Origin: Klebsiella phage KMI7
Strand: one strand, 5' to 3'
Sequence record: MN101221.1
Length of the DNA stretch: 64,000 nucleotides
Under the pieces are notes generated by a model that saw only the letters and a list, made by a program, of their open reading frames with translations, did no database searches and was not told where the DNA came from. Made by a program: the position numbers and the translations under genes. Below are positions 644 through 43,458 of the stretch, piece after piece. Position 1 is the first letter of the stretch, and the number at the start of each line of letters is the position of its first letter.

Positions 644-1969
644 GACATAATCAACAGTGAATCGTGCGCGGGTAGTTCCTACATAAAGCAACTGCTTACA
701 CAATTCATAATCGGCGTATGCGTATGCATCGCGCGTATACATGTATGAATGATCATACGTGCTTCCCTGACCTTTGTGATACGTACAAACCGGAAGCGCC
801 TTAACCGTCTGGAACTTGTTTTTGATTTGCCAGAACGAATACCAGGGGGCTTTGTATCCGGTTTCCTGTTTCATCTTTTTATACTGAAACGCGACGTAGT
901 TCAAATAATCGCCTAAACGTTCCTGCATAACCGGATCCGCGATAACCTGAATATCCGCTTTCGTATCCTCGAACATCGATTCTGTTTTCATCAAGAAATA
1001 ATCGATTTGAACCGGATCGCATCGGTCAGCTTTGATAGTATCAGAACGCGGTATGATTTCAAGGATTTTAATTTGCTCGTTGTTGTTATAGATAACTTCA
1101 ACAAACGAAACCCCATTCACACGGCCTTCCGTCACTAACGGTTCTTGCATCACAACTACTTCACCAACAATGAACGGCTGATCAGTTTTGTACAAGTGTT
1201 TGCGGATCACTGCGTTTAACTTGTCTACGTTTGCGTTAGTGTAAGCAAACATACGGTTATTATTCAGGTCATCCGGAGTCTTAACACGGCTAAAATAACG
1301 TCTCAGGAAGTCACCAGCGTTTTCGTGCTTCATTACCCCTAGTTCACCATTCATGAGGGGCATTAACGGCTTACCGTCGCGTATAGCGCGTGATACCTGG
1401 ATGATTGGGTTTCCTTCTGCCTGACGCATAATCTTATCCATGCGAATGACATCAAAAATTTCCTCATCAAAGAACGGTGAAAGCTCGGTGATCCCTTCGG
1501 TATTAACAGGACGGATCTGATCCTTATCACCCAATCCCAGGATCACCGCACAACTCGGAATAGTACGCTTGATGATACGGAATAGTTCTTTGTCAACCAT
1601 CGATACTTCTTCAACCACAAACACACGACATTCAGACAGATCAGCGGCTTTTTTGCCTTTTTGCTGTTCAAATACTCGTAACTCTTCGTTGGTTACGGGG
1701 CTGATTTTCAGTGCTGAGTGAATGGTCGTTGCATCCATACCCACCGCCTCAGAGAGAACGTTTTTAGCCTGGTGCGTCGGTGCTGTCAACCAGATCCCAC
1801 TAATACCCAGTTTTTTCAATGTTTCAAACACAAATTTTACCAGAGTAGTTTTACCAACACCCGGCCCACCTGTGATAGTAGTATGGATTTTGTTTCTGAT
1901 ATTTTTAATCACTCGATCATGTGCATTTTTCTGGTCTTCGCTCAGATCGTCAAAAGTTAATTCGCTCAT
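641..1969 (-). CDS. dda: Dda-type SF1B DNA helicase
   Basis: 442 aa. Walker A GGPGVGKTT. Collinear with my recall of T4 Dda (439 aa), including LTAPTH, DEVSMVD, QIRPV and the C-terminal LLYVGTTR motif. Confidence 0.9.
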   Translation of the reverse strand: MSELTFDDLSEDQKNAHDRVIKNIRNKIHTTITGGPGVGKTTLVKFVFETLKKLGISGIWLTAPTHQAKNVLSEAVGMDATTIHSALKISPVTNEELRVFEQQKGKKAADLSECRVFVVEEVSMVDKELFRIIKRTIPSCAVILGLGDKDQIRPVNTEGITELSPFFDEEIFDVIRMDKIMRQAEGNPIIQVSRAIRDGKPLMPLMNGELGVMKHENAGDFLRRYFSRVKTPDDLNNNRMFAYTNANVDKLNAVIRKHLYKTDQPFIVGEVVVMQEPLVTEGRVNGVSFVEVIYNNNEQIKILEIIPRSDTIKADRCDPVQIDYFLMKTESMFEDTKADIQVIADPVMQERLGDYLNYVAFQYKKMKQETGYKAPWYSFWQIKNKFQTVKALPVCTYHKGQGSTYDHSYMYTRDAYAYADYELCKQLLYVGTTRARFTVDYV

Positions 1970-2256
1970 ACTTTAATCAATACCCCTTGAATACTTGCGT
2001 GTTCAATAAACCAACGCATATCTTTCTTTTTCTTTTCGGTTACGGTTTCAACTTCTTCCTTTCGAAAGAATCGGCTAAGACCACTTTGTTTAACTGGATT
2101 CATCTTATCATGATATTCTTTGATAATCGAATTTTTATACTCGTTAGCATCGTCCGGAGATAGAAACAACAAAGGTGTTAACTCTCCTTCCTTAATGAAG
2201 GGAATTTTAAACCCGTCTTTATCCTTACTAACGACGATATAATATTTTGTAATCAT
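1966..2256 (-). CDS. hypothetical protein (96 aa)
   Basis: ORF whose stop overlaps the dda start (coupled). No motif. Confidence 0.45.
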   Translation of the reverse strand: MITKYYIVVSKDKDGFKIPFIKEGELTPLLFLSPDDANEYKNSIIKEYHDKMNPVKQSGLSRFFRKEEVETVTEKKKKDMRWFIEHASIQGVLIKV

Positions 2257-2438
2257 TCTCGCCCCTCATAACAAACGTAGAATATTCCAACAAACCAAAA
2301 CACTGATAGTATAATCAGTAAAAGTTTTCTTTCAACGCCATTTACGTGAAACACACACCAACCGAAAAGATATGTGATCATCGCGCAAACACCATAAGAA
2401 AGAACCCCAACAGCTACTAGCGCGATGATCGGATCCAT
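2253..2438 (-). CDS. small hydrophobic (membrane) protein, 61 aa
   Basis: Two hydrophobic stretches. Overlaps neighbouring genes by 4 nt. Confidence 0.35.
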   Translation of the reverse strand: MDPIIALVAVGVLSYGVCAMITYLFGWCVFHVNGVERKLLLIILSVFWFVGIFYVCYEGRE

Positions 2439-2971
2439 TAGTAGTTGTTAGCCCAACGGCGGAGGTTTTCGGCTTGTTTCAGTGCATACAGTTTGTAGAT
2501 AGTTTCCGCATCCATACCCAGCGCCAGGAATTTGCACATAAAGAAATGCCACTGATCGATAAGTTCAAACAGAACTTCTAAACGATCCTCTTCACTCAGA
2601 TCCGCAAATTTAGTATTGCGCAATTCCTGGTGATTTGCTTTCCACGGTTTCCAAACACCGGATGCAGGTTTAACACCGCGAGACATTCCACCCAGAGCGG
2701 TATACAATTCGCGGGTTTCGTCGGCGATCGCGTCATCTTGCAGTTTCAGCCAATCAAGGATTTCTCCGCAAGTTTCCAGATTATCTGGACGCGGAACCCA
2801 ATGCAGCGTATCAGACAGGCTTTGTTGTGCATGGTTTTGTAAATCCAGCATGGATTGTAAAGGATCACCATTACGGGCCAGAATCTTTTGATATTCGGAA
2901 TCTACAAATTCCAGATCTTCCGGGTTAACCAGGTGCGCACATGAATTAAATACAGGAGTTTTATCAGTCAT
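2438..2971 (-). CDS. MazG-like all-alpha NTP pyrophosphohydrolase (putative)
   Basis: 177 aa. ExxE (ADETRELY) followed by an EDRLEVLFELID motif about 50 aa later. This is the MazG ExxE...ExxD spacing. From sequence only. Confidence 0.4.
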   Translation of the reverse strand: MTDKTPVFNSCAHLVNPEDLEFVDSEYQKILARNGDPLQSMLDLQNHAQQSLSDTLHWVPRPDNLETCGEILDWLKLQDDAIADETRELYTALGGMSRGVKPASGVWKPWKANHQELRNTKFADLSEEDRLEVLFELIDQWHFFMCKFLALGMDAETIYKLYALKQAENLRRWANNY

Positions 2972-2978
2972 ATCAATC

Positions 2979-4004
2979 TCATTTTTTCGGTGATTTGTCC
3001 CACGACTTAAATCGAAGTTTTGCCGTGAGTCCAGAAACAGTATTATCTTTCAAATACTGCATAATTTCAAGTTTAGTTGCGCCGTCCGTTTTTATCATTT
3101 CGTTGATATCTTTGGAAGGCCACGGGCATTTGTCCCACATTACAACCTTTTCTCCAGCCTCAATCAATTTAAAGAGGCGGTGAGTAGTATCCGGATGACG
3201 TGCTTCATTGTCAAGAACCCAGACACGCATATTTTTATACGGAACCTCAGAAAGCGCAAGCTGTCCACCAGTGATAGCGCCAGCATTATCAACAAACAGG
3301 CTATCTAATGGCCCCTCAAGAAGATAAACCGTTTTTAGCGGATCTATCGTATCCTGTCCGTAAATCTTAGTTGATTCCTCACAGGCTTTGATTGTGATAT
3401 ATTTCGACTTAGCACCATCACGTAAAGCACGGCCCTGGAAAGATTCTATTTTACCTTTCTTATCGAAGATAGGGATCACTAATCTCGGTTCTGGTTTTGC
3501 GATCGGATAGGTATCCGGATTCACAGTATTAACCAGTTGTTGCCATTCGCGAGTAAACCACAACCGATCCCACTTGTCACGGGGAATACAACGATTTTGC
3601 ACATATTTTATGATCGGATGTTCATCCGGCAAGGTATCTAACCTTTCGCAGAATTGAAGAGTAGGAATAAATTTCTTCTCTTCCTTCGGTTGTTCTGTAT
3701 GTGTTGGCTTTAACGAATTGCGATCCTTAAACGATTCCATGAGATAATCACGGTAATCGTCTGGATAATATTCTTTCAGGAATACGCTAAACGGTACACC
3801 ATAACCACAGTTAAAACAACCACAATTCATATGATCGCCCTTTTTAGAAGGGTAGATCCAAAATCGTTTTTTGTACTTGTCTTTCATTGAGTCGCCGCAA
3901 ATAGGGCAACGCGCATTGATGCTTAATGCCCCTGATTTACGAACGATTTCGCTTTGAGGCAATGATCCCATGATTCGGGTTGCAAATTCTATATCAAGAT
4001 ACAT
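2979..4004 (-). CDS. 61: DNA primase gp61
   Basis: 341 aa. N-terminal zinc ribbon CPICGDS...CGCFNC. Length and position (between dda and gene 41) match T4 gp61 (342 aa). Confidence 0.88.
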   Translation of the reverse strand: MYLDIEFATRIMGSLPQSEIVRKSGALSINARCPICGDSMKDKYKKRFWIYPSKKGDHMNCGCFNCGYGVPFSVFLKEYYPDDYRDYLMESFKDRNSLKPTHTEQPKEEKKFIPTLQFCERLDTLPDEHPIIKYVQNRCIPRDKWDRLWFTREWQQLVNTVNPDTYPIAKPEPRLVIPIFDKKGKIESFQGRALRDGAKSKYITIKACEESTKIYGQDTIDPLKTVYLLEGPLDSLFVDNAGAITGGQLALSEVPYKNMRVWVLDNEARHPDTTHRLFKLIEAGEKVVMWDKCPWPSKDINEMIKTDGATKLEIMQYLKDNTVSGLTAKLRFKSWDKSPKK

Positions 4005-4323: not shown

Positions 4324-4821
4324 TCAACTGGTTAATTTCTTTTTCTTTTTACCTGCACGGGTAACACCTAATACTTTCGGCCCGATGTTGGTTACTGCTC
4401 CAGTAGTCACACCAGAAGCAATCTTTTCCGGATCGCCGCCAGAATCGCCAGCGACCATATCCTCTAACATACGCCCCTTATCATAATATTCTTTGAGGCG
4501 TGGAACGTTCAGCATGATTTCTTCATGCTCTTGTTCCGTCAGATTGTAGCGATTGCGTAAGGTATCATATGAACTGGTTAAGTTCATAAATCCAGTCATA
4601 TACGGAACAGAATTCATTCGACGCTTGATATGGCGTACTGAACGATGAAAAGGAGAATACGCTTCTAACTCTTCTTTTGTTTTGGGGTTGCGAATTACTT
4701 CGCCTTGTCCATCAAGGATCCCCAGCTTGTAAGCAGTCCATTCAGTCCAGGGCTTTTTGAGTAGCCGGATCATCCGGACGCTATATGTTAAATCCATATT
4801 TTTAACTAATTGATCACTCAT
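4324..4821 (-). CDS. hypothetical protein (165 aa), lysine-rich C-terminus
   Basis: Long open frame, co-directional. C-terminal KKKKK tail. Confidence 0.5.
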   Translation of the reverse strand: MSDQLVKNMDLTYSVRMIRLLKKPWTEWTAYKLGILDGQGEVIRNPKTKEELEAYSPFHRSVRHIKRRMNSVPYMTGFMNLTSSYDTLRNRYNLTEQEHEEIMLNVPRLKEYYDKGRMLEDMVAGDSGGDPEKIASGVTTGAVTNIGPKVLGVTRAGKKKKKLTS

Positions 4822-6858: not shown

Positions 6859-7068
6859 TTACCTTACATTTTTTGCAATAAACAGTGTTAAACGCGGGAA
6901 TACGTTTGATAGAATGATCATTCTCAGTACAAAACCACCTACTAACACCAACAGCGGAGAACAAACCAACCACCAGGAAGCAGTAGCCATAACGCCGATT
7001 GCTGCTAATTTTAGGTATACCATCACACCAAACAAAATAATTAATATAAGTTTCATTTTAGATTCCAT
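6859..7068 (-). CDS. small membrane protein (start uncertain)
   Basis: Hydrophobic ORF. The ORF-track start is a TTG inside a hairpin, so I trimmed to the first ATG (MESKM). No clear SD. Confidence 0.3.
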   Translation of the reverse strand: MESKMKLILIILFGVMVYLKLAAIGVMATASWWLVCSPLLVLVGGFVLRMIILSNVFPRLTLFIAKNVR

Positions 7069-7095
7069 TGTAGGGGCTTTTTCGCCCCCAGTCAA

Positions 7096-13518: not shown

Positions 13519-13552
13519 AATATAACAAAGCCCCTGCACGAATGCAAGGGCT
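13519..13552 (-). promoter_or_regulatory. promoter/stem-loop cassette between regA and inserted ORFs (TTGCAT-17-TATATT with embedded hairpin)
   Basis: aatataacaaagcccctgcacgaatgcaagggcttttt. The hairpin follows the regA stop. -35 lies in the loop and the -10 precedes the SD of ORF 13203..13490. Confidence 0.55.
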
Positions 13553-13558
13553 TTTTGA

Positions 13559-13921
13559 TTAGTGACCGATCCGGTACTTGTACTTGAGGATCCAATCTGC
13601 TTTTTGCGAGTGAGTCAGTACGCGGAAGTTGTTTTCTTCTGCAAACTTCAACCCAGGGGTTACGATCTTAACCATGCCCCACTCTTCGAGAAGTCGCGCA
13701 ATGTTGTTCCGGCGTAGTTCGTCTTCTTCCGTCATATCGACTTGACGACCATCGAGTTTCAACAGTTCTTTAAAATGCACGATAAAATACTTACCTTGCT
13801 TTTTCAGAATGTGACACGATTGCCAGAGCATTTTCTTTTTGTTGTTTGCAATACCAATACGGGTTAGCGTTTCACGGATCTTTAAAAAAGAATCGTCGCT
13901 GATTAGTTGAATTTCTAACAT
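13559..13921 (-). CDS. regA: translational repressor RegA
   Basis: 120 aa. Close match to my recall of T4 RegA (LTRMGIANN, QSCHIL, YYIVHFKE). Confidence 0.85.
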   Translation of the reverse strand: MLEIQLISDDSFLKIRETLTRIGIANNKKKMLWQSCHILKKQGKYFIVHFKELLKLDGRQVDMTEEDELRRNNIARLLEEWGMVKIVTPGLKFAEENNFRVLTHSQKADWILKYKYRIGH

Positions 13922-22385: not shown

Positions 22386-24060
22386 AACATTGACTTATCA
22401 AAATATCTTGTCGGTTGGTAACGTACCGATCGTCATTGATTTTGATTCAGCAAAGAAAACCCTCATTACGGGTAAAAACGGCGGTGGTAAATCCACCATG
22501 ATCGAAGCGCTTACATATGCTCTCTTTGGTAAGTCATTTCGCGATCTGAAAGTCGGACAACTGGTGAACAGTATCAACAAGAAAAAATGTCTGGTTGAAC
22601 TGTTGATCGAATACGGTAATGATGAATATAAAATCATCCGTGGACAAAAGCCGAAAGTATTTGAGATCTGGAAGAATGGCGAAAAACTGCCGGAAGATTC
22701 AGCCGCTGGTGATTATCAGTCACAGCTTGAATCAATGTTGAATATTAATCTGGTGGGCTTTAAACAGGTTATCGTTCTGGGTACTGCTGGTTATGTACCT
22801 TTCATGGAACTGAAAACACCAGATCGCCGTAAACTGGTTGAAGATTTGTTGTCTTTGTCTATCATCAGTGAAATGGACAAACTGAACAAATCATACATCC
22901 GTGGTGTTAACCGCGAACTGGATACGCTTTCAATGCAGATTGGACACGTACAACAGCAGATCGCAACACATCAAAAGTTCATTGACGAACAACGGGCAAA
23001 AGCAAATCAGAATACGGCGCGTTACCAGGATATCTACGATTCCCACGTAGAAACAGCAAAACAGATTAAAGCGCAATTAGTTGAACTTCAAACCCAGATC
23101 GCAGAATGTGTGATCAATGGTGAAGACCAAACAGCAAATATTCAAAAACTGCGTGATGGCTATACACGCCTCTCAATGAACGTAGAACAGTTGCAGCGTC
23201 TTGAGGTGATGTATCGCAAGGGTGGTGAATGTCCGGCCTGTAAACAGCCAATTAGCCCCACTCCTGAACGCATGGAAGAGATTGCCGAGAATATTAAAAA
23301 CGGTACTCAGAAACTTACGCTGATTAAGAACAAGCAAGATCAGCTACAGAAAATCATGGATGATTTACTAACACAACAACGTACACTAAATGGGCTGAAA
23401 TCCAAATACGAATCACTACGCGGTACACTTCAAAACGAAGTTGCAGCGGCTAAACGTGTTCGGGCTGTCATGGATAAAGCACAGGAAGACGTGGTGATCG
23501 ACGAATCCCCAGTTGAAAAACTCCGTGAAGATGAAAAGGAACTTGATTCTAAACGTTCTGGATTTGTCAAGGAAAAATATTTCAGAGGTATTGTTACGGA
23601 TCTGCTGAAAGATTCCGGCGTTAAAGCGAGCATCGTTAAACGTTATATTCCTTACTTCAATAAACAGATTGCGTACTATCTGGATCTGTTGGGTGCTGAT
23701 TATCAGTTCACTCTGGATGATGAATTTAACGAATCGATTAAATCGCTGGGTCGTAATGATTTTAGTTACGCATCGTTCAGTCAAGGAGAAAGAGCACGTA
23801 TCAACCTTGCTTTACTTTTCACCTGGCGCGATGTAACCAGTAAAATTTCTGGTGTTGATTTATCCCTTCTGATCCTGGATGAAGTGTACGATGGTGCAAT
23901 TGATCGTGATGGTAGTTTTGCTGTAAAAGCACTATTGGATGGGATAAATGGTAACGTAATTGTTATCAGTCATCAGGATTTGGATCCGGAAGATTTCGAC
24001 CGACATATTGTTATGTCAAAAGTCGGTCGATTCTCTAAAATGGAAGTTAAGAAGTCTTAA
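22369..24060 (+). CDS. 46: recombination ATPase gp46 (Rad50/SbcC-like)
   Basis: About 563 aa. Walker A GKNGGGKST, CPAC zinc hook, signature FSQGE, Walker B LILDE. Collinear with T4 gp46. ATG at 22369 after an AAAGGA SD. Confidence 0.9.
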   Translation: MKLKFKTLTYQNILSVGNVPIVIDFDSAKKTLITGKNGGGKSTMIEALTYALFGKSFRDLKVGQLVNSINKKKCLVELLIEYGNDEYKIIRGQKPKVFEIWKNGEKLPEDSAAGDYQSQLESMLNINLVGFKQVIVLGTAGYVPFMELKTPDRRKLVEDLLSLSIISEMDKLNKSYIRGVNRELDTLSMQIGHVQQQIATHQKFIDEQRAKANQNTARYQDIYDSHVETAKQIKAQLVELQTQIAECVINGEDQTANIQKLRDGYTRLSMNVEQLQRLEVMYRKGGECPACKQPISPTPERMEEIAENIKNGTQKLTLIKNKQDQLQKIMDDLLTQQRTLNGLKSKYESLRGTLQNEVAAAKRVRAVMDKAQEDVVIDESPVEKLREDEKELDSKRSGFVKEKYFRGIVTDLLKDSGVKASIVKRYIPYFNKQIAYYLDLLGADYQFTLDDEFNESIKSLGRNDFSYASFSQGERARINLALLFTWRDVTSKISGVDLSLLILDEVYDGAIDRDGSFAVKALLDGINGNVIVISHQDLDPEDFDRHIVMSKVGRFSKMEVKKS

Positions 24061-24772
24061 ACTTGCAGTTATCAAAATGCCAGCGATTCATATTGCTGGC
24101 ATCACCAGATTTATTGCAATATGGACAAATCAACTGCTTCCTTTTTGCTGGCGTCTTTCTATTTGGGTTATTTCTGCAATACGGTATATGTGAACGCAGA
24201 TAATGTAATGACGATTCTGTTCCGCAATATGGACAATTGCCCCGTTCTTTAGGTACGTTTCCGTTCTTATGGGAACACGGGATACCCTCGAACTTATGTT
24301 TCAACCCTTCATTACCTGGTTTCAGTTTGCAGTTGTCGAAGTGCCAACGAGTCATATTTCCAATTATACCTGATTTTCCGCAATGAGGACACACAACCCT
24401 TTCTTGTTGCTTTTTGGCTTTACTCATTCGCTGTCTGGTTTCTTCGGTGAACTCTCTATTCCTATGTGCTTCTGACGCTTTTTTCTTTAACCATTCATAG
24501 CGGCGGTTAGCTGTTCTTTCCTTTGATCTATTGGAACCAACTGTTAACATATGCGCTGCAAAAACAAGTTTGTTATTTCCTGGGTACATCTTGACTAATA
24601 ACAGATGCGCAATATAATGTTGACGCGCTGTAAGATTAACCAAATTATCATCAGAATCTGTTCCACCTATGCACTTAGGTATGATATGGTGTGATTCTGT
24701 ATATCCATCATACTGCGTTTGTTTAGCATGTTCTATGATAGAGTTATAAATTTTGTTATAGTTCATAAACAT
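24047..24772 (-). CDS. HNH homing endonuclease with C-terminal zinc-finger repeats
   Basis: HNH core SHHIIPKCIGGTDSDDNLVNLTARQHYIAH. Three CPHCGK/CPYCG...WHFDNCK repeats. Convergent with gene 46 and overlaps it by 14 nt. Confidence 0.8.
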   Translation of the reverse strand: MFMNYNKIYNSIIEHAKQTQYDGYTESHHIIPKCIGGTDSDDNLVNLTARQHYIAHLLLVKMYPGNNKLVFAAHMLTVGSNRSKERTANRRYEWLKKKASEAHRNREFTEETRQRMSKAKKQQERVVCPHCGKSGIIGNMTRWHFDNCKLKPGNEGLKHKFEGIPCSHKNGNVPKERGNCPYCGTESSLHYLRSHIPYCRNNPNRKTPAKRKQLICPYCNKSGDASNMNRWHFDNCKFKTS

Positions 24773-24822
24773 ATCTCTTGTTTGATGGGCCGTTAGATAC
24801 CCCTATTTAAGAGGATGAAATT

Positions 24823-25017
24823 ATGTTATTAGAAAAATCTTTTGAATTAGAAACCGCTCTGGAAATAGAGCGGTTTTATCTCCACAACAATTTTCTTGAA
24901 GAAAAACATATAGTTACTATGAAAGATGTTGAGGAAGCATTCAAAAATAATCCTATAGAGTTGACGCGAATCAAGAACAACAAAAGTTCTGTTTGGTTCC
25001 TCGAAAAAATCTATTGA
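24823..25017 (+). CDS. hypothetical protein (64 aa)
   Basis: Small plus-strand ORF. Followed by hairpin/T-run terminator 25041-25075. Confidence 0.4.
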   Translation: MLLEKSFELETALEIERFYLHNNFLEEKHIVTMKDVEEAFKNNPIELTRIKNNKSSVWFLEKIY

Positions 25018-25040
25018 CCGAAATCCATAAATACAGTAAA

Positions 25041-25075
25041 GTAGCCCATGTAACGAAACGTGGGCTTTGTTTTTA
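25041..25075 (+). terminator. intrinsic terminator (hairpin plus T-run)
   Basis: agcccatgtaacgaaacgtgggct stem-loop followed by ttgtttttatt. Confidence 0.5.
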
Positions 25076-25090
25076 TTTGAGGAACAATAA

Positions 25091-25327
25091 ATGATCACCG
25101 AATCCAAAATGACTTATCAGGAAGCACTGAAAGTTTTGGGCGCAACTGGTAGCGAAACCAGCGCCGAAATGTCCAGACTCTTCAAACGTGCATCCTTACG
25201 CAATCACCCCGACCGTGGTGGTAGCAATGAATTAATGCAGAAAATTAACCAGGCTTACGACGTCGTTACAAAAACTGGGCCTAGTGGCGCACGTTCTGAG
25301 ACTGCTGGTGACGTTCGCGCACGTTAG
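25091..25327 (+). CDS. J-domain protein (DnaJ-like, HPD motif); Rki-like N-terminal module
   Basis: 78 aa. Helices I-III plus the HPDRGG loop give a canonical J-domain. SD GAGGAA. The frame stops right after helix III. Confidence 0.7.
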   Translation: MITESKMTYQEALKVLGATGSETSAEMSRLFKRASLRNHPDRGGSNELMQKINQAYDVVTKTGPSGARSETAGDVRAR

Positions 25328-25775
25328 CGGAAACGATATCTTTGTTGAAGTTGGTACACTGAAAGTTCGTTTCTATCGTCACGTGTTCATGCGCAAAGGT
25401 GCTTATGTGTTTAGCGCGGTGTATGATCCTGCTGTATCTAAGTATCGTCCGGCTGCACAACTTCGCGGAACCATGTTCGAAGACGAAGACGGCGCTTGCC
25501 TGGATATGATCGTTGATACGTTCAAAGAGTTGCAGAAACTGAAACCGAGTGTTCAAGGCGTTGTGAACGCGATCGATAAGATGAACGCAGAGTTTGCAGC
25601 GGGACATCGTTCAGCATCTTTTGTTAAACGTGTAGCTGCTCAGGAAGCCGCGCCGAAGCCAGAAGAGAAGCCAAAACGCACTGTTAATCGTATCGGTAAA
25701 GAGGCACTGGAAGAACGATATTCCAACATCACGGGGATCTTTTCCCCGTCCTTGACGTTGTTAATGATATCCTGA
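25284..25775 (+). other. +1-frame ORF continuing downstream of the J-domain gene (possible frameshifted C-terminal domain)
   Basis: 163-codon frame that is open from 25236 and overlaps the J-domain ORF's 3' end. Begins only at a GTG. J-domain plus this ORF would total about 228 aa. Confidence 0.35.
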
Positions 25776-25906
25776 TCGATGAGTTCAATCAGGTCTCTTT
25801 TCTCCTTGATCAAGGTAGAAATTTCTTCTTGCAGCGGGGCTATCTGTGCATGAAGTTCTTTGATCCGTTGATCAATTACGGTCACTTCGAACGCTAAGTT
25901 TCTCAT
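25640..25906 (-). CDS. hypothetical coiled-coil protein (about 88 aa)
   Basis: Start at MRNLAF with a GGGGA SD. ATGA-coupled to the upstream gene. Its 3' third is antisense to the plus ORF 25284..25775, so the two conflict. Confidence 0.4.
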   Translation of the reverse strand: MRNLAFEVTVIDQRIKELHAQIAPLQEEISTLIKEKRDLIELIDQDIINNVKDGEKIPVMLEYRSSSASLPIRLTVRFGFSSGFGAAS

Positions 25907-26049
25907 TGTACCCATTCCCCGTTTTTATCAATGTACATGATCCAATCAGCAACCGCCCAATGGGAAGTATTGCCTTTCGGAGTAGCTACGATGTAGGAAC
26001 CAGCTTTAAACAGTACGCGTTTAGTTTCGTTCAGGGTCAGGTCGCTCAT
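25903..26049 (-). CDS. small protein (48 aa)
   Basis: Start MSDLTL. Has the same 19-nt RBS-start sequence GAGGAATACATTATGAGCG as the upstream gene. Confidence 0.4.
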   Translation of the reverse strand: MSDLTLNETKRVLFKAGSYIVATPKGNTSHWAVADWIMYIDKNGEWVQ

Positions 26050-28028: not shown

Positions 28029-29372
28029 TTAGAAATTGTCTTCGACAAACGCCGCGAGACGGGAACGATACACTGTATCAAGAATGATATGGCTTGAGTG
28101 TTCGTATTCTTTCAGCTTTTCAACAGCCCATACAAACCCGTTGTTAACGGCAGTGTTTCGAGGGTTGTCGATCTGCTTAATGTTCCCGCATAGTATCAGA
28201 AGTGTGTTCTCTCCGCAACGAGAAATGATAGATTTAATTTCGTGGTTGCTAAGGTTTTGACATTCATCAACAATCAGCACAGAACCTTTGCCCGGATCCG
28301 GATGTCCGATACTGCGACCACGGAAGTAATACAGGCTAGGGAATTGCACCACCCCTTTTTCAATCAAACCTTCAATGTATTTTTCAGATTCCGGATTATC
28401 CTTAAACAGAATATTCAGGCTAGTAATACAAGGTTCGATAGAAGGCCGGAGTTTTTCGCCCAATGTACCAGGAAGGAAGCCGATTTCACTTGATAACGGG
28501 CTATCTGACTTCACATACATCAAGTTAGCGTAATGTCCACTATTAACCAGGTGCATAGCACCGGAAACAGCAAGCATTGTTTTACCAGAACCAGCGCCGC
28601 CCATAATGGTAGCAACATCGATTTCATTGCTCATAATGGATTCGACAAAAGCCGCTTGCAGAGAATCACGGGGCTGAATAGCTTTCATGAGTTTGCGTTT
28701 CATAGCCTGTTCGTGCTTAACAGGTAAGACATTCAAGCAAATCTCATCAGCAGTCACCACACGCCCGACTAACTCACCATTTGAGGTAATGTACTGGTTA
28801 GGATAAAAATCTTCGTCAGGAAGCGAACTGTAAGTGATTTGGGCTACATTATCTGTATATCCCAACACTTCTACGGTATCCCAGAAATCAGGGATCTCTA
28901 CATAACCGGAATACAATACATCGCTATCTTTTAACGTATCGTCGCCAGTATACTGTTCTACCTTACACCCACGGGACATTGCGATCAGCAACATCATAAT
29001 ATCGCGAGTAACTAAGGTTGCATCCTGTTGCATACAAGTTTCAATGATTCGTTCGTCTTGCTTGTCAAGAGCAAACGTTTTGTTTCCGACATAATCAACC
29101 ACTTTAAGGGTGATAGTGTCAGACAGTGCTGGGTTTGTCAGGTTTAAAGGAATACCTGATTTCGTAATCGCATCATATGACTGACCGAAAATAACTTTTG
29201 ACAGAAGCCGGATCGCCAATCGTGCTTCGTGCGCTGTTCGTTCTTTCGTTTTCAGGTGATCTAATTCACCCATAGTAGCAGAGGTAATAATGATTTCTGT
29301 ACCAGGTTGAGTGAATGAATAGATTGAATAGGGGTTCGAGACTAAAACGTTAGTGTCTAAAACATATTTCAT
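28029..29372 (-). CDS. phoH: PIN-domain / PhoH-like ATPase fusion
   Basis: N-terminal PIN (MKYVLDTNVL...D). P-loop GGAGSGKT in the C-terminal PhoH-type domain. 447 aa. Confidence 0.78.
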   Translation of the reverse strand: MKYVLDTNVLVSNPYSIYSFTQPGTEIIITSATMGELDHLKTKERTAHEARLAIRLLSKVIFGQSYDAITKSGIPLNLTNPALSDTITLKVVDYVGNKTFALDKQDERIIETCMQQDATLVTRDIMMLLIAMSRGCKVEQYTGDDTLKDSDVLYSGYVEIPDFWDTVEVLGYTDNVAQITYSSLPDEDFYPNQYITSNGELVGRVVTADEICLNVLPVKHEQAMKRKLMKAIQPRDSLQAAFVESIMSNEIDVATIMGGAGSGKTMLAVSGAMHLVNSGHYANLMYVKSDSPLSSEIGFLPGTLGEKLRPSIEPCITSLNILFKDNPESEKYIEGLIEKGVVQFPSLYYFRGRSIGHPDPGKGSVLIVDECQNLSNHEIKSIISRCGENTLLILCGNIKQIDNPRNTAVNNGFVWAVEKLKEYEHSSHIILDTVYRSRLAAFVEDNF

Positions 29373-29387
29373 AGAAAATTCCTGATT

Positions 29388-29412
29388 TGATTACGGGGTA
29401 CGCGGATTCGCA
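29388..29412 (-). other. 5'-UTR stem-loop upstream of PIN-PhoH gene
   Basis: Perfect 8-bp stem gtacgcgg/ccgcgtac with an 8-nt loop, immediately upstream of the PhoH SD. Confidence 0.4.
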
Positions 29413-29427
29413 CCCCGCGTACTGCAA

Positions 29428-32236: not shown

Positions 32237-32491
32237 TTAAAGTCTTTCCAGCATATCAGGCCCGAATGCCATAACAAAAGAACCCCTCAACGCTTGCCAC
32301 TTTTTATGGAGGCGCTTAGGTACGTTTACTTGCAAACGATCCATTTTACGAATAAGTTCTAATGCATCGTTGCTTGTGATTTCATTGTAACCTGGATTTA
32401 TTGTTGCGATCCCATATCTAAACGCCATTCCAGCTTCGGTATTTCCAACAAAAACAGAGGCTTTCATTTCATCAAAAGATTGTTCAAACAT
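32237..32491 (-). CDS. hypothetical protein (84 aa)
   Basis: ORF with an AAGGAA SD. Confidence 0.4.
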   Translation of the reverse strand: MFEQSFDEMKASVFVGNTEAGMAFRYGIATINPGYNEITSNDALELIRKMDRLQVNVPKRLHKKWQALRGSFVMAFGPDMLERL

Positions 32492-32504
32492 GAGATCAGT
32501 TCCT

Positions 32505-32678
32505 TTAAATTGGTTTAATGGTTTTCAGGTGTAGTTTAGCATAAGAAGAACCAAATGAGTTACCATTATGATCAAACTTATGTTCTTCACTCTTCCAGTA
32601 TTTCCCCGATTTCATCAAGGGTATACGCTTCTTACCTGCTGTTATCGTTTCAACCATTCCGGTATGTGTAAAAATCAT
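32505..32678 (-). CDS. small protein (57 aa), not in the ORF track
   Basis: I translated it by hand: MIFTHTGMVETITAGKKRIP... Strong AGAGGGA SD. Its ATG overlaps the upstream stop as ATGA. Confidence 0.35.
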   Translation of the reverse strand: MIFTHTGMVETITAGKKRIPLMKSGKYWKSEEHKFDHNGNSFGSSYAKLHLKTIKPI

Positions 32679-33028
32679 ACAAATCCCTCTTCTTCAAGCA
32701 CTTCCCAGATCAGCTTATCAAGGTGCATCAGGTTCCACATAACAGAGTCATAAGAACCAAGTGAGCGGGAGTAAATCACTCCCCATGAACGATACGCCTT
32801 TTGGAATCCCTCTGCACTATCTACATCATACGGCATATCATCACCGGAAGCAATCAAAAGTTTTAGGATCATCAGACTATTGATCGCCTTTGGCGTGAAT
32901 TCTTGCTCGCTTAACTTCATAGCATATCGTTCAATAATTTCTATTGACTTTGATTCTTTGATACGAGAATCTTCTTTGCGTTTGTAGTAGCGACTCATCA
33001 ATTCATCAACGGCGGCTGTGCATTTCAT
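32675..33028 (-). CDS. hypothetical protein (117 aa)
   Basis: ORF coupled to its neighbours. Confidence 0.45.
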   Translation of the reverse strand: MKCTAAVDELMSRYYKRKEDSRIKESKSIEIIERYAMKLSEQEFTPKAINSLMILKLLIASGDDMPYDVDSAEGFQKAYRSWGVIYSRSLGSYDSVMWNLMHLDKLIWEVLEEEGFV

Positions 33029-33356
33029 ACATTCTTTCCTTCTGTTCTGTGCTCATACCATACAACTGAGAGCGTATACGGTCTTGTATGCGGCGTGTTT
33101 CGTTTTGCATCAGTTGGTTTGAAAGAATCAAATCGACTACCGCGCCGCGAACTTTCCATAGATAATCAATCATCGCCATATCTTCATCGGTATGGAAACC
33201 CTTCGCATCACATTCATAGATAATGCTTTGCCTTTCCGCCATTGCCATTTCTGCTGTTGCCGGAGTAGCCAGAGAATATTCATACTTCTCGATCAACGAT
33301 TCCAGTGTACGCGGTTTTTCGGGAATGTCAACCACTAAAGGATTAATTGGGTTCAT
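33006..33356 (-). CDS. hypothetical protein (116 aa)
   Basis: ORF. Its start overlaps the stop of the Fe-S protein gene by 4 nt. Confidence 0.45.
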   Translation of the reverse strand: MNPINPLVVDIPEKPRTLESLIEKYEYSLATPATAEMAMAERQSIIYECDAKGFHTDEDMAMIDYLWKVRGAVVDLILSNQLMQNETRRIQDRIRSQLYGMSTEQKERMYEMHSRR

Positions 33357-34615
33357 TTCAATTCCACCGCGTATACATCCAATTCAGGGGCTTTGTGTAC
33401 GCGCATATCTTTACCACATACCGCATAAGCCGGACAGTTACGGCAACCGTTATGATCCTTGTTACCGATCAATTCCTGACGGAATTTCTTAGTTTTCGGA
33501 TGTTCCCAGATATCTTTGATAAAATCACTGGCTTCCAGGACGTTAAGCCCTTCTGACCATCCACCCTCGACCCAACGTTCGGTAAATGAACAAGGGAAGA
33601 ATTCACCCTTCTCGTTGATGTACGAGCTAAACATAGTAGCTTCACAATCTTCCGCATACTGTTTGTATTGTTCAAAATTTTCATGCCCTTCCATAGCCTC
33701 TACAAAGGCCGGAGCGGAACAGGAATCAAAACCGAACCCTACACCGGATTCAAGGCAATAATCTACCAGCGCTTTATACTGCTCGCGTGTAACGGTATCC
33801 CAGTTCTTCCCACGGCCTTTTTGTTTCAGACCCAGGAATACGATCGCGTTAACTTGCTTCAAGCGCGGATCATTCTTCACAGCATCAACCACGTTAAACG
33901 CGTCATCATAGGTTTTAGAGCTAACCATGAAATGAAGGTTGATTTGCTGTTGTCCGGCTTCTGCCAGATTAGCCACTGAATTAAACGCTACATCGAATCC
34001 AGCATGTTTGTATACTGATACCGCAACAGCCCCAGCAACAGCCGCTAAACGCGCTGCAACGTCTTTTGATACATCAGCAATGGTAAGGTTTGGTACAATG
34101 CCTTTAGAACGCGCATAGGCCATCATATCAAACATATCAGGGTTTGTTTGTCCCTGTGCATCAGCACCGAGGGCGCATTGTGTTAACCAGGGCATTTTAT
34201 CAATGATAGATTTGAATGTATCAAGATCCATATTGAAGCCGTTAGGGTTATTAGACTTGTAGCAGAAACCGCAAAGTTTACCAGCGGGGCCATTGCATTT
34301 AGTTGTGATCTCGATATCGAGAATTTCGGGGAATGGGGCATAGGTAGGATCAGTTTCAAACGATGTTCCCCAGCGAGCAAACTCACCAGTTTTAACGTTG
34401 AAATTGTAGTTATACCACTTAGAGCGAGCGTAACGGATATCACCATCTTGATAGATGAACAGGGTAGGAGCTTTCAGAACAGTTTGTGCGTTATTCATAA
34501 TATAATTCTCAAAATCTAACATGGGATTGGAAGACAGCGCGAGCGAGACTTTCATTATCAAACGGTATTGATTGGTGTTGCCCTTTGCTATCGATGTTAA
34601 CGCGCCAAAATTCAC
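33353..34615 (-). CDS. cysteine-rich protein with radical-SAM-like CX7CX2C triad and SPASM/twitch-like C-terminal cysteine cluster (putative Fe-S enzyme)
   Basis: TTKCNGPAGKLCGFCY near residue 115. C-terminal CSAPAF, FFPCSF and GCRNCPAYAVCGKD. The ORF-track start is a GTG. ATG alternatives are 34555 or 34498, giving 381-420 aa. Confidence 0.45.
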   Translation of the reverse strand: MNFGALTSIAKGNTNQYRLIMKVSLALSSNPMLDFENYIMNNAQTVLKAPTLFIYQDGDIRYARSKWYNYNFNVKTGEFARWGTSFETDPTYAPFPEILDIEITTKCNGPAGKLCGFCYKSNNPNGFNMDLDTFKSIIDKMPWLTQCALGADAQGQTNPDMFDMMAYARSKGIVPNLTIADVSKDVAARLAAVAGAVAVSVYKHAGFDVAFNSVANLAEAGQQQINLHFMVSSKTYDDAFNVVDAVKNDPRLKQVNAIVFLGLKQKGRGKNWDTVTREQYKALVDYCLESGVGFGFDSCSAPAFVEAMEGHENFEQYKQYAEDCEATMFSSYINEKGEFFPCSFTERWVEGGWSEGLNVLEASDFIKDIWEHPKTKKFRQELIGNKDHNGCRNCPAYAVCGKDMRVHKAPELDVYAVELK

Positions 34616-34724
34616 TAGAACAATTTTCAGTGGAGTAGTTCAACAGCGTTACCGTTTTATTCTTTTCCAAAAATACGCGTTTGTCAATCTCTGTTTTGAT
34701 TACGTGTTCCATCATTTTACCCAC
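34509..34724 (-). CDS. hypothetical small protein (71 aa)
   Basis: ORF with no SD. Overlaps the long-start version of the Fe-S gene. Status uncertain. Confidence 0.3.
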   Translation of the reverse strand: MGKMMEHVIKTEIDKRVFLEKNKTVTLLNYSTENCSSEFWRVNIDSKGQHQSIPFDNESLARAVFQSHVRF

Positions 34725-34969
34725 CGTTGTTTGCGTTCGTCAGCCAGTTCTTTTTTGTACACCTTGATGTATTCGCCGTTCAAGGCACGGAGATTTGAAA
34801 ATACACGATTGAAAAGATTTTTCTTTTCTTTGTATGCCGGAGACATACGGATCGATTCAATAGTCATACCCATTTCATTTTTAGGATACGCTCTTAACTC
34901 TGCGCCGATCTCATCAATCCATTTTTGGTACTGATCGCGCTGTGCTTTGTACTGTTCAAAAGTCAACAT
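34712..34969 (-). CDS. hypothetical protein (85 aa)
   Basis: ORF. Confidence 0.45.
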   Translation of the reverse strand: MLTFEQYKAQRDQYQKWIDEIGAELRAYPKNEMGMTIESIRMSPAYKEKKNLFNRVFSNLRALNGEYIKVYKKELADERKQRWVK

Positions 34970-34976
34970 AACAACC

Positions 34977-35150
34977 TCACTTCATTTTAGCAATGTATTT
35001 GTCAATACTCATGTAAACGCGGGTATACATTACAGCAGCGTGACGGTCGAAGAATCTTTCCCACCATTCCAGCGCTTCCGCTTTAGAAGGTTTCGCGCCC
35101 AGGGCATCGTGCATTTTGGCTTTGATTTCTGTTACTGTCAACATGTCCAT
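34977..35150 (-). CDS. small protein (57 aa), not in the ORF track
   Basis: I translated it by hand: MDMLTVTEIKAKMHDALGAKPSK... GGGGA SD. Confidence 0.35.
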   Translation of the reverse strand: MDMLTVTEIKAKMHDALGAKPSKAEALEWWERFFDRHAAVMYTRVYMSIDKYIAKMK

Positions 35151-35215
35151 TTTTATCCCCGTTTCGTTTCGGTATGGGTGTAAGATAACATCATCCTACA
35201 CCCAGCGCAAGCATT

Positions 35216-35422
35216 TTATTCTTCTTCATCAAAATTATTTTGCGCGTAGTATTCACACACTGCATCTTCTGGGGTGCAACCGTCCGAGTAAAGAGCATAC
35301 ATCAGATCTTCGTCATAATCAGAAGAACCCAGCATATGTTGAACAGAGCGTTTCCATTTGTTGTAATCTTTTTCGCCCTGGGTTTCGCTGTTTTCTGATT
35401 TAAGCATTTCGTACATGTTCAT
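35216..35422 (-). CDS. hypothetical acidic protein (68 aa)
   Basis: ORF. ATGA-coupled with the upstream small ORF. Confidence 0.4.
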   Translation of the reverse strand: MNMYEMLKSENSETQGEKDYNKWKRSVQHMLGSSDYDEDLMYALYSDGCTPEDAVCEYYAQNNFDEEE

Positions 35423-35568
35423 AGGAATCTCCCGTAGTCGGTTGCAGCATCTTCCGGATCCGCATCAAGTTCGTACAGTTCGCGAGCTAGTGCGCTGGGT
35501 TTAATATCGCGCCCTAAGTGGGCGCTAACATTACGTAGCCATTTCATATAGGGTTCGAATTTGTTCAT
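35419..35568 (-). CDS. small protein (49 aa), not in the ORF track
   Basis: I translated it by hand: MNKFEPYMKWLRNVSAHLGRD... ATGA-coupled at both ends. Confidence 0.3.
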   Translation of the reverse strand: MNKFEPYMKWLRNVSAHLGRDIKPSALARELYELDADPEDAATDYGRFL

Positions 35569-35816
35569 TTTATACGTACCGCGTTAAAAGCCTGGTTCCG
35601 GAGATCATACGCTTTTTCAAGCTGTTCTGTAGTGAACAGATCACTATCCGAGTTTACTGTGAAACTGCAAATGGTTTTGTTGTCGGCGTTGACTTCTTCA
35701 ACAACGATATCATAACCCCAAATACCACTTAGTTCACATTTCACGTTACGGTACTTGATATAAACCGCAACAACATCTTCTTTTTTGTAGTTACGGCTTT
35801 TGTATAAAATTTCCAT
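35565..35816 (-). CDS. hypothetical protein (83 aa)
   Basis: ORF with an AGAGGGAG SD. Preceded by a degenerate leader copy. Confidence 0.45.
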   Translation of the reverse strand: MEILYKSRNYKKEDVVAVYIKYRNVKCELSGIWGYDIVVEEVNADNKTICSFTVNSDSDLFTTEQLEKAYDLRNQAFNAVRIK

Positions 35817-35889
35817 TTCAAACTCCCTCTGCTTCGTTTCGATGGGGTAACAATACCAAATTCAAACCAGGATTGTTTAGCAATTAGTG

Positions 35890-36051
35890 CTATAACACAA
35901 ACGAACGCCCATCTTTTATAGATCGTTCCAGCGATGAAGCGGTTACTGTAAACTCAGGAAACCAGCACCCAAGATTACTTGACCACCACCAGACATTCAC
36001 GCCGTCTGTTTTAAATTCGATGTTAAGGTAAGTATTGAAAACGTGTTTCAT
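35890..36051 (-). CDS. small protein (about 53 aa)
   Basis: Start trimmed to MKHVFN with an AGGGGA SD. The longer frame overlaps the upstream gene. Confidence 0.35.
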   Translation of the reverse strand: MKHVFNTYLNIEFKTDGVNVWWWSSNLGCWFPEFTVTASSLERSIKDGRSFVL

Positions 36052-36061
36052 GTTGTTCCCC

Positions 36062-36340
36062 TTACGCCATTTTCTTAGCGATTTTCCAGGAGGCTTTGAA
36101 CGCCGGAACGTCTTCAATATCAATCCAGAAACCAGATCCGAAACCATCACTATAGCAAGGGCAACCGTCGCAGTAGTTTTCCCAGGTCATCACTTCACCA
36201 CCAACAGAAGCACCAGTTTCCATAGCACGTAATGCATCTTCAACTTTTTCCAGTTTTTCGGCGTTGTCGTCGTAAATGACAAAGTACCATTTACCGTTGT
36301 ATTCGTTACCCAGTTTGATTGATTCGCGAACAAGTTTCAT
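36062..36340 (-). CDS. hypothetical protein (about 92 aa) with CxxC..C pair
   Basis: Start MKLVRE with an AGGAA SD. Downstream of promoter 36379-36406. Confidence 0.45.
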   Translation of the reverse strand: MKLVRESIKLGNEYNGKWYFVIYDDNAEKLEKVEDALRAMETGASVGGEVMTWENYCDGCPCYSDGFGSGFWIDIEDVPAFKASWKIAKKMA

Positions 36341-37078: not shown

Positions 37079-37653
37079 TAATAATATCCTTGTACGTTGA
37101 AGCGATCACATAACAATTTTCTTGTTTGGTTAGTATCGCTTTGGATAGAATTCAACATAGCGCTGATCATGTTTAAGTTATTTTGCATCATTTCCGCGCT
37201 CATGAGAACTTCCATACGCGCACGTAAGCGTTTATTTTCTTCTTCCAACTCAACCATACGGTCATATGCTTTTATGCGCTCTAAGGGCATATCAGGGCGC
37301 TCTTTGAGTACGCGAGCACGTTCAACCTCACAAGCATGATTTGCTTTCCAGTGGTTCGATTCCGCTTCAAATTTATTGAGGCGGCGGATCTCTTCAACCA
37401 GCTTTTTGATCATGTGTGGATCCATCATGTCGATGAATTTCATCAAGCAATTGGATTTTGTTTGGTTGTCAGCAACAGACCAAGACGAATTATACGTAAC
37501 CGTAAACGTGCGGCCCATTTCATCAACAACCCCGATCTTGTTATCATCGGTGATTGCAGCCGCCCATTTCTCCCGCATGGCTGTACAGGTTCCGCTGGCT
37601 ACACTGTGCAACTTGTTTAATGTTGCATCATCAAACACAATTTCATCACTCAT
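37078..37653 (-). CDS. hypothetical protein (191 aa), coiled-coil C-terminus
   Basis: ORF. Confidence 0.5.
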   Translation of the reverse strand: MSDEIVFDDATLNKLHSVASGTCTAMREKWAAAITDDNKIGVVDEMGRTFTVTYNSSWSVADNQTKSNCLMKFIDMMDPHMIKKLVEEIRRLNKFEAESNHWKANHACEVERARVLKERPDMPLERIKAYDRMVELEEENKRLRARMEVLMSAEMMQNNLNMISAMLNSIQSDTNQTRKLLCDRFNVQGYY

Positions 37654-37660
37654 ATATGCC

Positions 37661-38059
37661 TCACATAGATTTCAAAATACGCAGAAGTGCGTTAGTAAAG
37701 ATATCAGGAACACAACCACCAAACAACTTATGATTCATCAGCGCTAATTTCATGCTGTGATTTTCAGTATATCGCCCGTTCTGGATCCCCCAGGCAACGA
37801 CATTACCAGGTTCATGAATAACTAAGTTGGTGAGAGTAACGGTCATGCGCTCTTTATCATTGATAGAAAATGAATAGCAGTAACCGGATCCGATGTCGCC
37901 GTAAAGGTTAAGGTCTTTCAATTTCCCTTGCTCATGCAAGCGTTTCATATGAACTGCACATGCATGATTAATAGTCATTTCGTCATCCCTAGCCCAGTCA
38001 TCAATACCAGAGGTATAACGAATATTGAAATAGTTAGTCAGTTCATTTGATACGCTCAT
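37661..38059 (-). CDS. hypothetical protein (about 132 aa)
   Basis: Start trimmed to MSVSNEL with a GAGG SD. Confidence 0.45.
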   Translation of the reverse strand: MSVSNELTNYFNIRYTSGIDDWARDDEMTINHACAVHMKRLHEQGKLKDLNLYGDIGSGYCYSFSINDKERMTVTLTNLVIHEPGNVVAWGIQNGRYTENHSMKLALMNHKLFGGCVPDIFTNALLRILKSM

Positions 38060-38470: not shown

Positions 38471-38504
38471 AATATAACAAAGCCCCTGCACGAATGCAAG
38501 GGCT
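38471..38504 (-). promoter_or_regulatory. promoter/stem-loop cassette (TTGCAT-17-TATATT with embedded GC hairpin)
   Basis: aatataacaaagcccctgcacgaatgcaagggcttttt. On the minus strand: terminator hairpin, -35 in the loop, then the -10. Confidence 0.55.
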
Positions 38505-38510
38505 TTTTGA

Positions 38511-39425
38511 TTATTTTGGTAATTTTTCGATGGTTGCTTTCAACTCATTGATTTTATTAAAGAGTTCATCGCTATATTTCATCAACTCAGTACGGCGCTT
38601 TTCGGCCCACTTGATCAGGAATTCAGGAGAATCTACACCATACGTGTAACCGTCGGCACTTAGTTGAATACGAGCACGGGAACCATAATCAACAGAACTT
38701 TGTTCAATGAGAAACTTAACCGCATCAAGCAGGGCTAAATCTTCATGACTTACCATGATTCCTTCTGCCTTTGGAAGATCCACAACTTCATCCTGAATGA
38801 GTTCACGGCGGGTTGTTTCTTCCAGTGTTTCATGATTCTGGATCATCGTTTCGACCGGATCCTTTGCCACGACTGGTTTATTTTCACCTACTTCTTCCAA
38901 AAACATCAACATCCATCCAGGAATTTTAGTCCGGAAAGAACTTTGCACTTCACTGGTGCATGAATTTCCCAGAATGTGGATCGCGTTGCCATGCATATCA
39001 ACTTTATTGATATAGATAACGTTCTGCTGTTCCTGTCGGTTGCTACCATAAGAAAGGAAGCGGCGTAACGATGTGTTATGACCATACTTCCCTAAATCGA
39101 TTTCAGCCAGGCAATCAATGATCCCACGGTTAGAAACCTTGTAGCGCTTACCCTGTTTGAAAAATAACGATTCTTCCATGTGAGTAGGGTTAAACTCTTC
39201 ATAAAGCACATAGAATTCTTTAGGAATTTTGCGCTGAACCAGACTCAGTTTACAATTATTAGAAGGAACGATAACAGAGTGAATGTTTCCTTCTGTATCA
39301 CACATAGCTTGCATTACTTGCGGATAGTAAAGATGGTCTTTCTTGCAAGTATAGCTATGGATACGACTCTGACGTTTTTTGAAGTACCATTTACCAGTTT
39401 CAAAAGGCGCTGTTGTAAAATTCAT
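38511..39425 (-). CDS. hypothetical protein (304 aa)
   Basis: Long ORF. ATGA-coupled to the upstream DUF262-like gene. Confidence 0.55.
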   Translation of the reverse strand: MNFTTAPFETGKWYFKKRQSRIHSYTCKKDHLYYPQVMQAMCDTEGNIHSVIVPSNNCKLSLVQRKIPKEFYVLYEEFNPTHMEESLFFKQGKRYKVSNRGIIDCLAEIDLGKYGHNTSLRRFLSYGSNRQEQQNVIYINKVDMHGNAIHILGNSCTSEVQSSFRTKIPGWMLMFLEEVGENKPVVAKDPVETMIQNHETLEETTRRELIQDEVVDLPKAEGIMVSHEDLALLDAVKFLIEQSSVDYGSRARIQLSADGYTYGVDSPEFLIKWAEKRRTELMKYSDELFNKINELKATIEKLPK

Positions 39426-42880: not shown

Positions 42881-42914
42881 AATATAACAAAGCCCCTGCA
42901 CGAATGCAAGGGCT
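42881..42914 (-). promoter_or_regulatory. promoter/stem-loop cassette (third identical copy)
   Basis: aatataacaaagcccctgcacgaatgcaagggctttttt. Identical to the core sequences at 13519-13552 and 38471-38504. Confidence 0.55.
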
Positions 42915-42918
42915 TTTT

Positions 42919-43458
42919 TCAGTTTTTCAACATCCAAAGTTGCGGAGGACAATCTTTAGAAGCGATTAGACGATCCAGGCGGGACATAACCCGACGATAA
43001 CCGTCGTATTCAAAATTAATTTTTGGTGGAACGTAGTTTACCTGGATTGTTTTTCTGTTAGCTAAAGAAACATACTCAGGGATCACTGTTCGCAACCGTA
43101 TAGCGATGACTGGCTTCTCTTCGCCTTCGTTAAAGAACATTTGAACAGTGATAGGACAGGCAAAAATTTTACCATTTACCCGACGATAAACAATAACTTC
43201 CTGTGTCCCTTCTGTTTTGGCCTTCACAGCGTAGGTTAGAACATAACACGAATAATGATTTGCTAGACTCATCATGATATCGCGATAAGTTTCAATATCT
43301 TTTTTAATCGATACTGAACGGTCTTTAAAGCGATCTGCAATGTGGTCAGCAGTAGCCGCTACCTTGATTGTATACCAGTCACCTAACGCGCTAGTAAACG
43401 CCTCGCTAACTTCTTTTCGTACACTGTTAACAAGATACATTAAACGTGTTCTGTTCAT
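42919..43458 (-). CDS. hypothetical protein (about 179 aa)
   Basis: Start trimmed to MNRTRL with a GAGGA SD. Confidence 0.45.
   Translation of the reverse strand: MNRTRLMYLVNSVRKEVSEAFTSALGDWYTIKVAATADHIADRFKDRSVSIKKDIETYRDIMMSLANHYSCYVLTYAVKAKTEGTQEVIVYRRVNGKIFACPITVQMFFNEGEEKPVIAIRLRTVIPEYVSLANRKTIQVNYVPPKINFEYDGYRRVMSRLDRLIASKDCPPQLWMLKN

Follow-up and report, generated by a model that had tools for sequence, protein, structure and literature searches.

How a reading frame should be understood when it ends abruptly and a second, +1 frame stays open across and beyond its stop is the question raised by a J-domain locus in Klebsiella phage KMI7 (sequence record MN101221.1), which lies within the 64,000-nucleotide stretch of DNA analysed here (the window). 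The original prediction, made from the sequence alone, recognised a textbook J-domain ORF with relatives in phage RB43, and offered for the break in its frame a programmed or mutational +1 frameshift, a sequencing indel or a degenerating gene.

Megablast places the region amongst the Slopekvirus group, T4-like Klebsiella phages (KP15, KP27, Matisse, phT4A, BL02 and KM3 amongst them) that are ~98-99% identical to it, and BL02 12,101-121,906 is collinear with the whole 64-kb window save for gaps of 494 bp and 44,775 bp and a few cassette-type indels. Indels relative to BL02 elsewhere in the window are multiples of three or fall in spacers, the sole exception being a gap of one nucleotide close to the 3' end of BL02_176, and outside the two gaps the assembly of the window is clean rather than noisy. 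The cassette-type differences are found at window 4335-4343, 6875-7072, 29370-29426 and 32241-36062; compared with BL02 the window is without a 219-bp ORF (BL02_27) and a 525-bp ORF (BL02_151, named as a homing endonuclease in KMI9), carries a 198-bp insert and includes a ~4-kb stretch that is just 75-92% identical, all of which is the ordinary variation of hyperplastic regions. A ~40-nt hairpin-plus-T-run element, AATATAACAAAGCCCCTGCACGAATGCAAGGGCTTTTT, occurs three times on the plus strand (window 13521-13560, 38473-38512 and 42883-42920) and resembles a module of the terminator type that recurs between small early genes.

The gene order in every annotated relative runs from gp46 through an HNH endonuclease and gp45.2 to a single ORF of 1710 bp encoding 569 aa, a form found in more than 110 relatives, and then through small ORFs to frd. 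The left-hand synteny of the J gene in the window matches that of KM3, phT4A, BL02 and RB43, placing it at the orthologous position, and its right-hand synteny has gone with a 45-kb deletion. Its upstream neighbour is a gp45.2 homologue (24823..25017, plus strand; Pfam Gp45_2 E=4.9e-5, in agreement with the annotation of KM3, phT4A and RB43), and between the two genes a terminator-like hairpin (AGCCCA...TGGGCT, 25043-25066) with its T-run occupies 25043..25076 on the plus strand. An HNH/mobE-like homing endonuclease gene lies between gp46 and gp45.2 on the minus strand (24047-24772) and shares 14 nt with the 3' end of gp46; it has the same place in KM3, phT4A and BL02 and is missing from RB43. 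When the locus is aligned with KM3 and phT4A, their locus positions 702-2027 and 2516-2899 correspond to window 24001-25326 and 25321-25704 respectively.

The truncated J ORF was found where it had been predicted, at 25091..25327 on the plus strand, with an ATG start and a Shine-Dalgarno sequence, GAGGAA, read 6 nt upstream of it (25079..25084, plus strand). Its product of 78 aa, MITESKMTYQEALKVLGATGSETSAEMSRLFKRASLRNHPDRGGSNELMQKINQAYDVVTKTGPSGARSETAGDVRAR, is an exact match to the record entry QEG10290.1 (KMI7_124), and translation and alignment identify it as codons 1-78 of a 569-aa protein of the Rki-058w type, which bears out the proposed kinship to RB43 Rki. The HPD motif (H39-P40-D41) is present and is invariant across a 21-sequence alignment of the family. 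A phmmer search of the PDB with the 78-aa ORF retrieved Tim14 (E=5e-8), as well as DnaJ, DNAJA1, DNAJB1 and polyoma T antigen; the Pfam DnaJ model (PF00226) matches it with E=2.6e-5, although its 24.7 bits fall slightly short of the 27.8 set as the gathering score, and a PF00226 match is recorded for many homologues of the J protein. The stub also matches phrog_7739 (E=2.1e-38), and its assignment as a predicted J-domain is supported.

The gene family to which this ORF belongs is already known. In RB43 the product of ORF057w, Rki (237 aa), acts as a functional J-domain protein, binding DnaK and stabilising sigma-32 (Perrody 2012, PMC3486835); stimulation of DnaK by the J-domain of the RB43 orthologue has been shown genetically, the C-terminal domain is required, as Rki(1-159) is no longer toxic, and in-frame fusions of 057w with 058w occur in RB16 (565 aa) and KP15 (PMC3486835). 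The 569-aa Slopekvirus protein is spanned by RB43 057w and 058w, one for each half, and by tblastn it is ~73% identical end to end with RB43 057w+058w and with the RB16 fusion. The intact Slopekvirus gene is thus a previously described Rki-058w fusion of the Rki16/KP15 gp055 type, in which a J-domain is followed by the C-terminal domain of Rki and then by a pair of 058w-like repeat domains. Of 204 phage records, 177 carry at least 80% of this protein in one place, and the 21 homologue clusters recovered comprise 18 of 554-573 aa and three of 349 aa. In three records, CPRSA (OM971648.1), CPRSB (OM971649.1) and ALF_ER54 (PP738790.1), the J-protein gene is present as two to three annotated ORFs or tblastn pieces; these splits are likely to be frameshifts or sequencing errors of those records, independent of the lesion in the window.

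An AlphaFold2 (AF2) model of the intact homologue (locus positions 1792-3501; pLDDT 79.9) has helices at residues 9-16, 24-37 and 46-62, a long helix at 72-104 and a beta/alpha domain at 122-239. Foldseek matches the J region of the model to Tim14 (TM 0.75, target-normalised) and to T antigen, both with probability 1.0. The 058w-like half is made up of two repeats of a beta-sheet plus helix, at residues 242-351 and 381-475, which are 35% identical (E=3e-14) and are each followed by a linker rich in Lys, Pro and Glu. For the C-terminal domains, Foldseek against the PDB returned weak matches only, to PUR-alpha and MRP1-MRP2-like (Whirly-like, nucleic-acid-binding) folds, and NCBIfam and Pfam gave no match.

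The frame of the window gene really does change, and alignment with Rki and other phage J-protein homologues, which had been proposed as the means of locating the change, places it at a clean deletion of 494 bp. The missing segment is BL02 37444-37937, nucleotides 237-730 of the gene, so that codons 79-244 have gone; it is kept in all 112 close relatives. The junction (25321..25326) lies at a microhomology of ACGTTA, a 6-bp direct repeat flanking the deletion that is exact in phT4A and matches at 5 of 6 positions in BL02 and KM3, and that can be extended to an imperfect repeat of 8/10. The left flank reads GCGCACGTTA up to the breakpoint and continues as TGCACG, the right flank reads GCTGAC(G/A)TTA up to the breakpoint and continues as GCGGAAAC, and the window reads GCGCACGTTAGCGGAAAC. 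As 494 is 3n+2, the codons downstream are read in the +1 frame, and the 78-aa ORF ends at a TAG that exists only because of the junction, with TA contributed by the left flank and G by the right. In the protein alignment the first piece of the gene falls on residues 1-78 of the 569-aa protein and the second on residues 245-369, so that 165 codons are physically absent between them, and the loss of residues 79-244 means that the entire Rki C-terminal domain, which spans about residues 79-237, has gone. In the AF2 model the breakpoint at residue 78 falls inside the helix at 72-104, of which seven residues are left in the window ORF. The possibility that the 494 bp are instead an intron or mobile insert in the relatives was considered and rejected, as these bases code, in frame, for the conserved C-terminal domain of Rki.

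A reading-frame scan confirmed that the +1 frame opens at 25236, directly after a stop at 25233-25235, and stays open to 25775, overlapping the 0 frame at 25236-25327. The absence of a good start and Shine-Dalgarno sequence at its 5' end also held up: its first start codon is a GTG at 25284, and no Shine-Dalgarno sequence stands upstream of the internal ATG at 25389, which is the annotated start of RB43 058w. The open stretch is not due to chance, because translation of 125 of its codons reproduces residues 245-369 of the intact homologue without a mismatch. These lie in a retained island of the same gene (25327..25704, plus strand; codons 244/245-369), which the alignment and the AF2 model identify as the first repeat of the 058w-like half. 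The +1 piece is a later part of the same protein, but it is not the C-terminal domain of Rki, and its last 23 codons (25705..25775, plus strand), ALEERYSNITGIFSPSLTLLMIS, match nothing in the intact protein on alignment and are a nonsense tail antisense to the remnant of a neighbouring gene. As the +1 piece represents the first repeat of the 058w-like half, the resemblance of the summed length of ~228 aa to that of Rki is a coincidence. Judged from the sequence, the 058w-like piece is most likely untranslated and silent. The minus-strand ORF that had been noted as conflicting with it (25640..25906, 88 aa, also in a version at 25640-25915) is real, but alignment reveals it to be chimeric: its amino acids 1-67 are the N-terminus of a 196-aa protein (BL02_145/phrog_7208), and its last 21 are nonsense, antisense to the J-gene island. 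Exact-protein look-ups found no record entry for the +1 ORF or for the chimeric minus-strand ORF in either its 91-aa or its 88-aa version.

Both nonsense tails arise at a second junction, 378 bp from the first, at 25704..25705, where 44,775 bp (BL02 38316-83090) are missing and residues 370-569 of the J gene are lost as well. The flanks in the window are GGTAAAGAGG to the left and CACTGGAAG to the right, the right side falls within the minus-strand gene BL02_145, and the breakpoints share imperfect homology only (TAAAGAGG and ATAAGACA). Genes lost with the 45-kb segment include frd, td, nrdAB, denA, rnlA, the spanins, pseT, cd, a gp31-like co-chaperonin, DNA ligase and the baseplate hub/tube-initiator cluster, several of which are essential in T4; no phage with this sequence as its full genome could therefore form plaques. 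The KMI7 record is 131,200 bp in length, close to the 130,326 bp of BL02 minus both deletions, from which it follows that the 45 kb are absent from the whole record; a translocation of the segment within it was rejected on the same grounds. The second junction is present in none of 114 relatives, and exact 24-mers spanning either junction have no match in viral, metagenome and genome contig collections.

Compared with its nearest known counterparts, the window gene is a remnant of a member of the Rki/Rki16 family and not an intact member. It occupies the same locus as Rki16 of RB16 and gp055 of KP15, after gp46 and gp45.2 and before frd, and 78/78 and 125/125 of its retained residues are identical to those of the fusion-type orthologue of phT4A and KM3. 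Unlike the Rki16 and KP15 gp055 fusions, it is missing residues 79-244 and 370-569, its frame is broken and just a 78-aa stub remains in frame. The J-domain of RB43 Rki, with its HPD, is conserved in the window ORF, whereas the C-terminal domain that RB43 Rki needs is wholly deleted, and the +1 piece downstream corresponds to RB43 058w, not to Rki.

The break in frame is almost certainly the scar of a deletion and not a ribosomal recoding signal, which agrees with the mutational or degenerating gene amongst the options of the original prediction. Loss of 494 bp between two copies of ACGTTA makes the J ORF run into a TAG formed by the junction, with codons 245-369 following in the +1 frame; 378 bp further on, the second junction connects the gene to the interior of a minus-strand gene 44,775 bp farther along the genome, and both ORFs crossing it end in nonsense tails. 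The product would be at most a 78-aa J-domain stub that has helices I-III and HPD and is without the domain on which the DnaK-dependent activity of Rki relies. Against KM3 and phT4A the remnants show 3-13 nt differences and no amino-acid change, and the out-of-frame island is therefore still marked by purifying selection on the frame in which it was once read. Since these differences are synonymous only, the event is either very recent or an artefact of the record.

Programmed +1 ribosomal frameshifting, by which the J-domain would be joined to a C-terminal domain in an Rki-like protein of ~228 aa, is the explanation that the overlap of the two frames, the poorly equipped start of the +1 frame and a summed length near the 237 aa of Rki would favour. 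It has next to no probability and is refuted by the homologue alignment, as the pieces that it would join are not contiguous in the intact protein, 165 residues standing between them in every intact homologue, and the 0-frame stop at which slippage would be needed is itself a product of the deletion junction. Furthermore the arrangement is absent from relatives, the gene being uninterrupted in 112/112, inspection of the overlap revealed no CUU-UGA-type or other known +1 shift site, and the +1 ORF ends in an antisense nonsense tail of 23 aa. A single-base sequencing error or a point frameshift in an otherwise intact gene is the commonest cause of split ORFs, and the CPRSA and CPRSB records are indeed split in this gene; here the alignment with relatives shows a clean gap of 494 bp and not an indel of 1 nt, and the conserved genes of the 64-kb window hold no frameshifting indels apart from the BL02_176 exception noted above, so that an error of this kind is extremely improbable and is refuted by the alignment.

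Just as improbable, and likewise refuted by the homologues, is the view that the ORF is a naturally short, J-domain-only protein followed by an unrelated gene. Such a protein would account for the Shine-Dalgarno sequence, the start codon and the HPD-bearing helices I-III that the 78-aa ORF retains, but the homologues ending naturally at ~78 aa before an unrelated gene, which had been named as a possible refutation, were not found amongst the records searched, 177 of which hold at least 80% of the protein, and the shortest natural members are of 237 aa (RB43 Rki) and 349 aa. The sequence downstream is the same gene out of frame, and the break lies inside a predicted helix.

Given that the frame break is a deletion scar, there are two accounts of how it came to be in the record, and the one towards which we lean, without great confidence, is that the deletions are an artefact of the assembly or finishing of the deposited KMI7 sequence. 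The other, which we regard as less likely but serious, is that both deletions are real and lie on the same DNA molecules. These would be either genomes of ~130 kb that are defective and depend on a helper, or a deletion-bearing subpopulation that was dominant, and they would have arisen by illegitimate recombination or template switching. In T4-type phages deletions are known to form between short direct repeats by illegitimate recombination or slipped mispairing, and the first junction is like these, being at a 6-bp direct repeat with order and orientation preserved. The retention of order and orientation on both sides of a 378-bp island would be typical of template switching, the surrounding assembly is clean, and BL02 has no repeats of more than 14 nt at the four breakpoints that might mislead an assembler. 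The second junction is unlike such short-repeat deletions, as it has no exact microhomology and removes 45 kb including essential genes, which is beyond a viable loss. A headful-packaged virion of the T4 type that carries such a genome alone cannot form a plaque, and by analogy with T4 biology plaque purification should therefore eliminate it. Furthermore both junctions are unique amongst more than 110 relatives.

The submission batch to which the KMI7 record belongs also argues against real deletions, for it holds "complete genomes" that are plainly incomplete. KMI10 (MN101224.1) carries this label, yet is a contiguous fragment of 59,583 bp from a Slopekvirus genome of ~175 kb, and KMI9 (MN101223.1) is missing 9,082 bp relative to BL02 (91,782-100,863) at its position 25203-25206, with truncation of a radical-SAM gene. 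The only methods published by the same group, for KMI8, are Nextera XT libraries, MiSeq 2x150 reads and Unicycler. KMI7 is also named in the DNA-polymerase tree of BL02.

One further point in favour of real deletions comes from an ENA metagenome contig, ERZ1303452 NODE_11939 (2,144 bp, coverage 1.67), which ends at the same base as the left breakpoint of the first junction (window 25326). The strain behind the contig is another Slopekvirus, set apart by four synonymous differences, and the shared end could point to a recurrent break at this position. The look-up by exact match returns just those partial genes that are cut at that codon, and selection of this kind probably explains the coincidence; given ~100 sequence variants in the cluster, the probability of its arising by chance is roughly estimated at 5-10%.

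That the junctions are real in phage DNA at all, in either of two versions, seems to us rather unlikely; the versions are the helper-dependent genome of ~130 kb with both junctions, and a phage with the 494-bp deletion only. Because RB43 can do without rki (PMC3486835), the shorter deletion by itself may represent a real rki knock-out in a viable phage.

The main consequence of the deletion scar is that a false lead for programmed +1 frameshifting has been removed, which is of little biological consequence. The KMI7 record, without ~45 kb that include essential genes, is unsuitable for use as a complete Slopekvirus genome, and QEG10290.1 is likewise unsuitable as evidence for a short J-domain protein. 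If both junctions were true, the lysate would have been dominated by a genome formed in two steps of template switching, a defective-interfering-like entity in a headful-packaging myovirus; if the 494-bp deletion alone were true, KMI7 would be a knock-out of rki-058w found in nature, in which the 78-aa J-domain stub is expressed as a free protein.
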